Virus record (IMG/VR): IMGVR_UViG_3300032271_002180 | Source of the DNA: a virus | DNA length: 20,897 nucleotides | Direction: 5' to 3' (one strand) | Notes under the pieces: generated by a model | The model's database searches: none | The model's input: only the letters and a program-made list of their open reading frames with translations | What the model was told of the DNA's origin: nothing | Part shown: in pieces, positions 15,048-15,298 of the stretch | How the letters are laid out: each line of letters begins with the position of its first letter | Position numbering within the stretch: position 1 is the first letter of the stretch | Position numbers and translations under genes: made by a program

Positions 15048-15121
15048 TGGTGGGATGCAGCGGGATCGAACCGCCCTCGACACTGCAATCAGTGCTCAGC
15101 CCCATTGGCTGTTGCTATCCC
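15048..15121 (-). tRNA. tRNA-like gene with a 6-nt anticodon loop (GCACT-GATTGC-AGTGT) and a mismatched acceptor end
   Basis: T-arm GGCGG-TTCGATC-CCGCT. 3' strand GCATCCC A CCA. 5' strand GGGATAG pairs at 5 of 7 positions. The D-loop is short. Confidence 0.3.
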
Positions 15122-15126
15122 ATGAA

Positions 15127-15218
15127 ATGGCGGAGGGCTTTGGAGTTGAACCAAACAGTGATTGTTGCCGTAATCATCCATCGCTGGATGATGCCCGCAC
15201 CACGCGAGCAAGCCCTCC
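15127..15218 (-). tRNA. tRNA-like gene (92 nt) with a 6-bp anticodon stem TCATCC / GGATGA, a 6-nt loop AGCGAT and an 18-nt unpaired variable region
   Basis: Acceptor GGAGGGC / GCCCTCC is perfect. D-arm GCTC-GCGTGGTGC-GGGC. T-arm TTTGG-TTCAACT-CCAAA. Discriminator G and CCA. Confidence 0.4.
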
Positions 15219-15224
15219 GTAAAC

Positions 15225-15298
15225 TGGTTGGCCCGGTCAGGATCGAACTGACACTCTATCGGTTGATACCGATTGCTTTACCATTAAGCTACGGGCCA
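15225..15298 (-). tRNA. tRNA-like gene, otherwise canonical, with a 6-nt anticodon loop (ATCGG-TATCAA-CCGAT) containing UCA
   Basis: Acceptor TGGCCCG / CGGGCCA. D-arm GCTT-AATGGTA-AAGC. T-arm GTCAG-TTCGATC-CTGAC. Discriminator A and CCA. Confidence 0.55.

Follow-up and report, generated by a model that had tools for sequence, protein, structure and literature searches.

The tRNA cluster of phage T4 carries two small stable RNAs that are not tRNAs, rnaC and rnaD (species 1 and 2), which lie next to segB and whose role is unknown (PMC3014915). Allo-tRNAs also occur in phage tRNA clusters, as described by Mukai et al. in 2017, and some irregular tRNAs are charged but unused in translation, with regulatory roles suggested for them (PMC5389517). 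Undetected genes are found among the array members of the Anabaena trn operon (PMC8421152), and a review of frameshift-suppressor tRNAs and tRNAs with enlarged loops records rare natural exceptions, including tRNAs in a phage (PMC5009743). The present analysis concerns three consecutive tRNA-like genes, named A, B and C below, at positions 15048 to 15298 of the IMG/VR virus record IMGVR_UViG_3300032271_002180; this whole stretch of 20,897 nucleotides (nt) is referred to as the window. Each of the three genes has a 6-nt loop in place of a regular anticodon loop. The initial annotation treated them as a single phenomenon. Instead, they form a heterogeneous set in which A is a probable pseudogene, a lineage-specific disabled copy of tRNA-Ile(GAU), whereas B and C belong to old, conserved tRNA-like families without an anticodon and are likely tRNA mimics. 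The observation itself is real and beyond noise. The three genes are as follows, with MFE denoting the minimum free energy.

15225 to 15298, minus strand: gene A, copy of tRNA-Ile(GAU); 6-nt loop UAUCAA at 15263-15268, otherwise canonical body with A73 and encoded CCA
15128 to 15218, minus strand: gene B, conserved type-II tRNA-like RNA; loop AGCGAU at 15180-15185, cloverleaf MFE of -40.5 kcal/mol, z = -4.0
15048 to 15121, minus strand: gene C, conserved type-I tRNA-like RNA; loop GAUUGC at 15085-15090, collapsing to AUUG; MFE cloverleaf

Three tRNA-like genes with six-nucleotide loops

All three genes, given at first without a strand, lie on the minus strand and encode a CCA, and for each the MFE fold is a cloverleaf. 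The anticodon-arm loops of A (UAUCAA), B (AGCGAU) and C (GAUUGC) each comprise 6 nt, and the outer loop bases can pair, leaving 4 nt. A canonical anticodon loop, with 7 nt, U33, a 3-nt anticodon and a purine at position 37, is found in none of them. The acceptor stem, a D arm with GG, a T loop of the UUCNANU type, a discriminator base and CCA are present in A and B, and in C with a bulged A6 and a 5-base-pair (bp) D stem. The acceptor, D and T arms and the CCA, at first described as intact throughout, are so in A and B and only partly in C, given the bulged A6 in its acceptor stem and its atypical D arm. The gene borders given at first stood for A and C and were corrected for B, whose CCA ends at 15128 and not at 15127.

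An independent assembly of the region (Logan ERR2848496, numbered L001; related loci carry further L numbers) differs from the window at 16 of 8461 positions, none of them within A, B or C, which excludes assembly errors as the source of the loops. ARAGORN reported A as "tRNA-???" (tc) with a 2-base anticodon, the only anticodon that is not 3 nt long among 232 calls in the window and 25 loci. It called B a tRNA-Trp(CCA) in a shifted register and left C uncalled. With the Rfam tRNA model RF00005, which has a gathering threshold of 29 bits, A scored 58.6 bits, its anticodon loop being aligned with 1 nt deleted, B had no separate listed match, and C had none in a 1-kb search that allowed E values up to 10. 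In this listing overlapping matches of the same clan are suppressed, and B's best clan match is the selenocysteine tRNA (tRNA-Sec), below threshold. The MFE folds, the abnormal calls and the identical second assembly together bear out that three tRNA-like genes with 6-nt anticodon loops are present. Exact DNA searches of IMG/VR with the anticodon arms of A and B gave no match, and patterns based on the gene bodies were needed. A literature search on 6-nt anticodon loops returned no match.

Ordinary tRNAs might have been misread by eye, with another stem register restoring 7-nt loops and making B, for example, a tRNA-Trp(CCA). ARAGORN does give this call for B in the window, L001, L011 and L012, but makes no call for B in L015, L017, L020 and L024. 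The Trp register of B lies 13-15 kcal/mol above the MFE, and 2-3 of its 5 stem pairs are kept in homologs. Being both costly and lost in homologs, the shifted register, and with it the Trp-CCA call, is an artefact. The Rfam tRNA model likewise needs a loop deletion for A, leaves C unlisted and places B below threshold as tRNA-Sec. No conserved alternative register yields a 7-nt loop in A, B or C. The standard registers envisaged in the initial annotation as a possible refutation did not appear, and its view that no normal anticodon is presented is upheld. A misreading is highly improbable.

Frameshift-type tRNAs were also proposed at the outset, decoding doublets with the 6-nt loop or quadruplets with an 8-nt reading. 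A loop size of 6, or of 8 with the closing pair opened, and the 2-base anticodon that ARAGORN assigns to A would agree with this. Known frameshift suppressors share the non-standard loop size, but their loops of 8-10 nt present an anticodon, whereas the loops here have at most 6 nt and no anticodon context; a loop of at least 8 nt with a 4-base anticodon after U33 is found in none of the three genes. The 8-nt readings require opening a G-C or C-G pair and lack U33, and no register offers U33, then an anticodon, then purine 37. The G-C or A-U closing pairs are predicted to form, so that the loops collapse to tetraloops. Moreover, the central loop bases of B are free to differ among homologs (CG, CA, CC, GU, GC), the loop of C changes size or turns into a 58-nt hairpin, and A lacks the GAU anticodon, the major identity element for isoleucyl-tRNA synthetase (IleRS). 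Decoding of this type is very unlikely.

The tRNA-like domain of transfer-messenger RNA (tmRNA) does not describe the three genes either. ARAGORN finds no tmRNA, pair 3:70 is G-C in A and C and A-U in B, and the tmRNA-related signal is an 11.8-bit partial cyano_tmRNA match over the T arm of C only. Among aminoacylation identity elements, G3:U70 is absent; in B the variable arm is long, and position 73 is G in the window and A in relatives.

A plus-strand protein-coding region with incidental cloverleaves would be another way to read the stretch. Open reading frames (ORFs) do exist at 14944-15222 and 15047-15427, and a gene caller predicts a product of 101 amino acids (aa) in L001 at 2797-3102, but no Pfam family matches this product. 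The stretch is made up of five cloverleaves in direct succession, all with CCA at the end, and B and C turn up in different neighbourhoods as separate modules of RNA size, which leaves a coding origin a vanishingly small chance. The evidence supports the conclusion that A, B and C have no usable anticodon loop and that none of them can decode.

Gene A and the tRNA-Ile(GAU) family

Read from 15298 to 15225, A is UGGCCCG-UA-GCUU-AAUGGUA-AAGC-A-AUCGG-UAUCAA-CCGAU-AGAGU-GUCAG-UUCGAUC-CUGAC-CGGGCCA-A-CCA, with an anticodon arm in which the stem AUCGG/CCGAU closes UAUCAA. A body-based pattern found its homolog on the IMG/VR contigs L013 and L014 as an ordinary tRNA-Ile(GAU) of the form UGGACCGUAGCUUAAUGGUAAAGCAAUCGG-UUGAUAA-CCGAUAGAGUGUCAGUUCGAUCCUGACCGGUCCAACCA. 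Outside the loop, A and these genes are ~97% identical, and the sole difference in the body is a compensatory change at pair 4:69 (A-U to C-G). The signature of U1-A72 and A73 is common to A and the Ile family in alignment A6. All 6 other Ile members of this alignment, including a canonical gene of the window at 13599-13672, have the GAU anticodon in a 7-nt loop YYGAUAA, which is absent from A. The odd loop is thus not conserved among the Ile relatives of A. Several Ile(GAU) genes of the phage group have C33 in place of U33.

The loop UAUCAA is the reverse complement of UUGAUAA (UUAUCAA) minus one U. Its edit distance is 3 from the ancestral loop and 1 from the reverse complement, and a single deletion in the latter can give only 5 of the 4096 hexamers. 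The stem AUCGG/CCGAU is an inverted repeat, so a template-switch inversion of the hairpin loop, a type of mutation already known, would yield exactly the loop of A. From these sequence relations we infer, as the best explanation, an inversion origin in which a template switch across AUCGG/CCGAU would have flipped UUGAUAA to UUAUCAA, together with the loss of one U. Adaptive variation of the loop to escape anticodon nucleases, as first suggested, fits poorly, and inversion with the loss of 1 nt accounts better for A.

In the relatives L011, L015 and L017-L025, tRNA-Ala(UGC) lies directly before B, and the position of A between Ala and B is therefore specific to the lineage of the window. Because the canonical tRNA-Ile(GAU) is kept at 13599-13672, A is redundant for decoding. 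The GAU anticodon is the main identity element for IleRS; having lost it, A is probably not charged, and charging by IleRS is unlikely. A probably arose from the phage tRNA-Ile(GAU) family by duplication or transfer and is probably a young, redundant pseudogene that cannot decode. In this it resembles the undetected genes of the Anabaena trn operon as a redundant array member with an inactivating lesion (PMC8421152), but its lesion is confined to the anticodon loop and is inversion-like, the rest being ~97% identical to a working homolog. A would be a clean example of the inactivation of a tRNA gene by hairpin-loop inversion.

Genes B and C as tRNA-like RNA families

From 15218 to 15128, B reads GGAGGGCU-U-GCUCGC-GUGGU-GCGGGC-AUCAUCC-AGCGAU-GGAUGAU-(variable arm)-UUGG-UUCAACU-CCAA-AGCCCUCC-G-CCA. 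Its 6-bp D stem closes a loop of 5 nt that contains GG, the long variable region measures ~18 nt, the T loop is canonical, and G73 precedes the CCA. In the anticodon arm a 7-bp stem, AUCAUCC/GGAUGAU, carries a loop equivalent to an A-U pair closing a GNNA tetraloop; an AGNN (Rnt1p-type) reading of the loop was rejected, as the closing pair would be C-A. The acceptor/T branch fits 7/5 or 8/4, since U8-A80, whose bases are invariant, can lengthen the acceptor stem to 8 bp with a T stem of 4. B differs from tRNA-Sec (RF01852) in score (31.8 bits, with a gathering threshold of 47), in the absence of UCA from its loop and in an acceptor and T branch of 12 bp instead of 13.

Homologs of B were searched for with body patterns in IMG/VR and JGI metagenomes, which gave 14 further loci besides the L001 re-assembly of the window; with the window they comprise 7 distinct sequences. 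Their loops always have 6 nt (AGCGAU, AGCAAU, AGCCAU, AGGUAU, AGGCAU, AGGCAC) and follow the form A-G-N-N-A-U/C; the odd loop is conserved here in all copies. Variation affects the two central loop bases, the loop of the variable arm, position 57 in the T loop and the discriminator, a G in the window and an A elsewhere. Between loci B is 89-93% identical with flanks that are 27-77% identical. Its variable columns avoid stems (5 of 58 paired vs 10 of 33 unpaired positions; Fisher p = 0.016), also without the 21 columns fixed by the patterns (p = 0.029). None of the 7 distinct sequences has a frame-destroying indel in the arms. Homologs in L016 and L022 have a G2-to-U mismatch, and that of L011 has a weakened anticodon stem.

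Gene C, from 15121 to 15048, reads GGGAU(A)GC-AA-CAGCC-AAUGG-GGCUG-A-GCACU-GAUUGC-AGUGU-CGAG-GGCGG-UUCGAUC-CCGCU-GCAUCCC-A-CCA. It combines the bulged A6 in the acceptor stem and the 5-bp D stem with a canonical T loop, A73, CCA and an anticodon arm of 5-6 bp, GCACU/AGUGU. Homologs occur in L003, L010 and L011/L012, making four distinct versions. The body of C is almost invariant while the anticodon-arm loop varies in sequence and size: the arm is GCACUG-AUUG-CAGUGU in the window, GCACUG-GUAG-CAGUGU in L011 and ACACCG-GCGAA-CGGUGU in L003, and in L010 the stem is kept and the loop replaced by a 58-nt hairpin. Across the four sequences 97.8% of cells pair, vs 34-52% with slid partners, and two pairs have changed on both sides, in the anticodon stem (U-A to C-G) and in the T stem (C-G to U-A). 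A scan of genome contigs for C gave one match, inside an ATPase gene of an Acidobacteria metagenome-assembled genome, which was rejected as a chance match. Kissing between the loops of B and C was also considered; the window pair can form 5 bp (GCGAU/AUUGC), which by eye are not maintained in the loops of L011 and L003.

Covariance models were built from the B and C alignments and scored over ~300 kb of related arrays. With the B model, family members scored 81-118 bits and every other tRNA <36 bits; with the C model, family members scored 84-102 bits and other tRNAs <34 bits. A gap of >45 bits separates the family members from every other tRNA, and neither model found an intermediate with a canonical loop in these arrays. 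From the alignments and model scores, B and C are two mutually unrelated, old, conserved families of non-decoding tRNA-like RNAs kept across diverged huge phages.

Alternatively, A, B and C could all be decaying, functionless tRNA pseudogenes tolerated in a large, redundant array. For A this agrees with its lineage-specific occurrence and its redundancy with the Ile(GAU) gene at 13599-13672. Pseudogenes are known in tRNA arrays, as for 3 of 26 genes of the Anabaena trn operon (PMC8421152), and the G2-to-U mismatch in the B homologs of L016 and L022, the weakened anticodon stem in L011 and the lack of C in many relatives also point that way. Decay does not fit a B gene that keeps its 6-nt loop frame and ~90% identity while its flanks diverged to 27-77%, that changes outside its stems and that has gained no frame-destroying indels in its arms, nor does it fit the compensatory changes in two helices of C. 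Decay of all three genes is unlikely.

We therefore consider it likely that A is a young pseudogene and that B and C are maintained as anticodon-less, tRNA-shaped RNAs, which would act as tRNA mimics. Several points weigh against this. The search patterns that found the B homologs fix 21 of its 91 positions; the stems of B are invariant and show no covariation, so that its fold is supported by thermodynamics and the tRNA-like layout; and its high conservation could partly reflect recent horizontal spread. For C the evidence consists of four distinct sequences, and the shuffle control of its covariation is modest (23 of 500). C is missing in many B-bearing relatives and B is missing in L010, so neither is indispensable. 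For A, the inversion was matched to the loop post hoc, and another role of the gene is conceivable.

The RNAs of T4 are the nearest functional analogy of B and C. Likewise non-decoding and small, rnaC and rnaD lie between the tRNA genes of a T4-type phage and near a homing endonuclease gene (segB in T4), and rnaC carries a tRNA-like T arm and a terminal stem. They differ in having 119-139 nt and folds that are not simple cloverleaves, whereas B and C are tRNA-sized cloverleaves with CCA; the B model gave no match on the T4 tRNA region at E up to 10. Structurally, B comes nearest to the allo-tRNA/tRNA-Sec shape: the D stem is long and its loop small, the variable arm is long, the anticodon stem is lengthened, and the 12-bp acceptor/T branch fits 8/4, one of the two configurations of allo-tRNAs (8/4 or 9/3), and equally 7/5. 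Allo-tRNAs, though, carry identifiable anticodons in loops of 7 nt, and several of them are active decoders in E. coli, whereas B has a fixed 6-nt loop without U33.

Phage context and proposed roles

A minus-strand array of tRNA genes spans ~3746-16212 of the window, with 16 genes called by ARAGORN and more added by Rfam. Between the tRNA genes lie HNH and other endonuclease-like ORFs and genes for an ADP-ribosylglycohydrolase, a NADAR protein, a DnaQ-like exonuclease and an 834-aa protein resembling major vault protein. The last (946-3450, minus strand) has a major-vault-protein shoulder and repeat domains. It has >5000 metagenomic homologs and is widespread on contigs of huge-phage size, up to 570 kb; among GenBank phages only the uncultured huge phages LR756500/1/3 match it, with 38-39% identity. 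One relative has a T4-type Gp23 capsid gene on its contig. These matches and the Gp23 gene identify the source as a huge T4-like phage from environmental metagenomes. Close relatives of the region were found neither among GenBank phages nor among PLSDB plasmids, where the flanks and A gave generic tRNA similarity only and B and C no match. The features around the three genes are as follows.

15424 to 16104, plus strand: endonuclease-like ORF of 226 aa between tRNA-Tyr and tRNA-Ala; matches endonuclease and resolvase-like families in PHROGs
15410 to 15438, minus strand: promoter-like site TGGACA-17-TATGAT, 10/12 in a consensus scan, directly upstream of the run Ala-A-B-C-Trp
15305 to 15380, minus strand: tRNA-Ala(UGC), upstream neighbour; normal 7-nt loop UUUGCAC, atypical T loop; Rfam tRNA 32.1 bits
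14965 to 15039, minus strand: tRNA-Trp(CCA), downstream neighbour; normal 7-nt loop CUCCAAA; called by ARAGORN; 100% identical in L017-L019
13599 to 13672, minus strand: canonical tRNA-Ile(GAU); loop CUGAUAA; Rfam tRNA 67.2 bits; called by ARAGORN

The promoter-like site (15438-15410) is the best match in the region, where the total number of sites is no higher than in shuffled sequences, and is a weak indication. The endonuclease-like ORF is a marker of mobile-element traffic in the interval; a related ORF at 9061-9789 has a weak TnsA-like N-terminal match below cut-off (E 4.6e-4, 21.1 vs 26.5 bits). The tRNA-Trp and tRNA-Ala genes have canonical anticodons but non-standard T loops, AUCGUGG and GAGCGUUAC. 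In relatives, tRNA-Trp(CCA) has a long variable arm and 88-92 nt (L003 11169-11260, L011 7211-7298, L015 6888-6976). An origin of B as a duplicate of the neighbouring long-arm tRNA-Trp was rejected, as the B model does not score that gene. Beyond tRNA-Trp, between it and a Lys-like tRNA, lies a non-coding stretch of ~150 nt (~14800-14960, minus strand) without an Rfam match; it is closed by the long-range stem CUUAGAACCACUACCG...CGGUAGGUUCUAAG, and its 5' part recurs after tRNA-Ile in L011 (~7000-7055).

The interval between tRNA-Ala and tRNA-Trp, whose end is marked by the Trp gene at 14965-15039, encloses A, B and C and varies in content among relatives. L010 has C without B, L015-L025 have B without C, L003 carries two more insert-bearing tRNA-like genes between B and C, and both families are absent from the extra relatives L027-L032. 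Judged by these gene contents, the interval appears to behave as a variable cassette site, which may be why A landed there. A is also situated in a recombination-prone interval adjoining a gene like those of homing endonucleases.

In L015-L025 the place of C is taken by an RNA of ~70 nt with a three-way junction (L015 ~6985-7075, minus strand), closed by CCGGUG...CACCGG with a compensatory change in L015 (CCAGUG...CACUGG); its folds have z = -2.8 and -3.1. Other tRNA-like genes with acceptor and T arms and CCA contain insertions of 100-150 nt (L003 11430-11650, minus strand; L010 6045-6215, plus strand), and ARAGORN called none of them. Insertions of 70-85 nt also occur in the anticodon loop of otherwise normal tRNA genes (window 3746-3902, minus strand; L015 ~7270-7430, minus strand; L010 5626-5770, plus strand). 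These are far too short for group I introns and may be a family of mini-introns in huge-phage tRNAs. The L010 and L015 inserts share the motifs GCGUAGAAUGC and UUGCCGUGCNAUACGGCUAGA, the latter recurring in L004, L020, L021, L023, L024 and L025, and the 85-nt insert of the window is without UUGCCGUGCNAUACGGCUAGA.

Genes for RNA and for ADP-ribose chemistry lie nearby. An ORF at 13987-14583 (plus strand, 198 aa) has an invariant LYH.T motif and no Pfam match. The top dozen Protein Data Bank matches of its AlphaFold model (pLDDT 83) were Tpt1/KptA, the tRNA 2'-phosphotransferase, and were weak (E ~0.04, TM 0.31-0.34). In relatives its homolog lies between a Zeta/AAA_33 kinase and a homolog of the CCA-adding enzyme or adjoins an ADP-ribosylglycohydrolase; as a query against viral contigs the ORF gave no match. 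This neighbourhood points to a module for repair or splicing of RNA, and such a module would agree with the insert-bearing tRNAs. The same accessory region holds a NADAR-domain protein (482-916, minus strand) and an ADP-ribosylglycohydrolase (9853-10692, minus strand), consistent with reversal of an ADP-ribosylation-based host attack. Together, these genes suggest a phage group that invests in tRNA and RNA maintenance and in conflict with its host, as a context for B and C.

Such a conflict over tRNA raises the possibility that the three RNAs are decoys for host anticodon nucleases, which recognise the anticodon loop. A nuclease that reads the anticodon cannot be decoyed by an RNA that has no anticodon loop, and A, B and C have none. 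Phage tRNAs that evade nucleases reportedly keep a 7-nt loop and an anticodon and stay decoders, and A, B and C do not. Pfam scans of the window proteins, and PADLOC on those of them that were tested, revealed no anticodon-nuclease gene. In favour of decoys are the RNA-repair-type genes and those for reversal of ADP-ribosylation in the phage group, and the proposal that phage tRNAs counter tRNA-targeting defences (PMC10264068). The large phage tRNA set, the defence pressure on tRNA and the change in the anticodon loop are shared with the phage tRNAs whose anticodon-loop substitutions have been proposed to evade anticodon nucleases (PMC10264068). Only factors binding the acceptor or elbow could conceivably be decoyed, a role that already belongs to the mimic reading, and decoys for anticodon nucleases are decidedly improbable.

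In the favoured reading of B and C as tRNA mimics, the parts retained in all three genes are those recognised by tRNA-processing enzymes: the acceptor stem, the D/T elbow with GG and UUCNANU-type loops, and the encoded CCA. A, B and C would be co-transcribed with the minus-strand array, and B and C would mature like tRNAs through RNase P and 3' trimming. Their anticodon arm is a mere helix capped by a small loop, and they would act through their acceptor and elbow surfaces. They may be ligands or sponges of proteins whose contacts with tRNA lie away from the anticodon, for example host toxins, defence factors and processing or repair enzymes; the toxins and defence factors would target the tRNA body or the 3' end. 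A role as decoy, substrate or regulator through the acceptor, T and D part is thus possible. With its long variable arm, B might also receive an amino acid from a synthetase of the SerRS/LeuRS type (for serine or leucine) that does not depend on the anticodon, and then be a non-ribosomal carrier of this amino acid. More tentatively, B, C and perhaps the small RNAs replacing C could form a new class of anticodon-less tRNA mimics that mature like tRNAs, are used in trans and are swapped in the Ala-Trp cassette. Such mimics might titrate host factors that sense or attack the body or the CCA end of tRNA, and B may instead carry an amino acid for a reaction outside the ribosome.

The tRNA arrays of phages are commonly taken for sets for codon supply or anti-defence, and odd genes among them are put down to noise in the predictions. 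B and C are missed or wrongly called by ARAGORN and the Rfam tRNA model (B as "Trp", C uncalled), and tRNA counts and anticodon tables of huge phages are therefore partly wrong. If B and C act as proposed, huge-phage genomes would hold a further layer of tRNA-mimic RNAs, with targets accessible to experiment.

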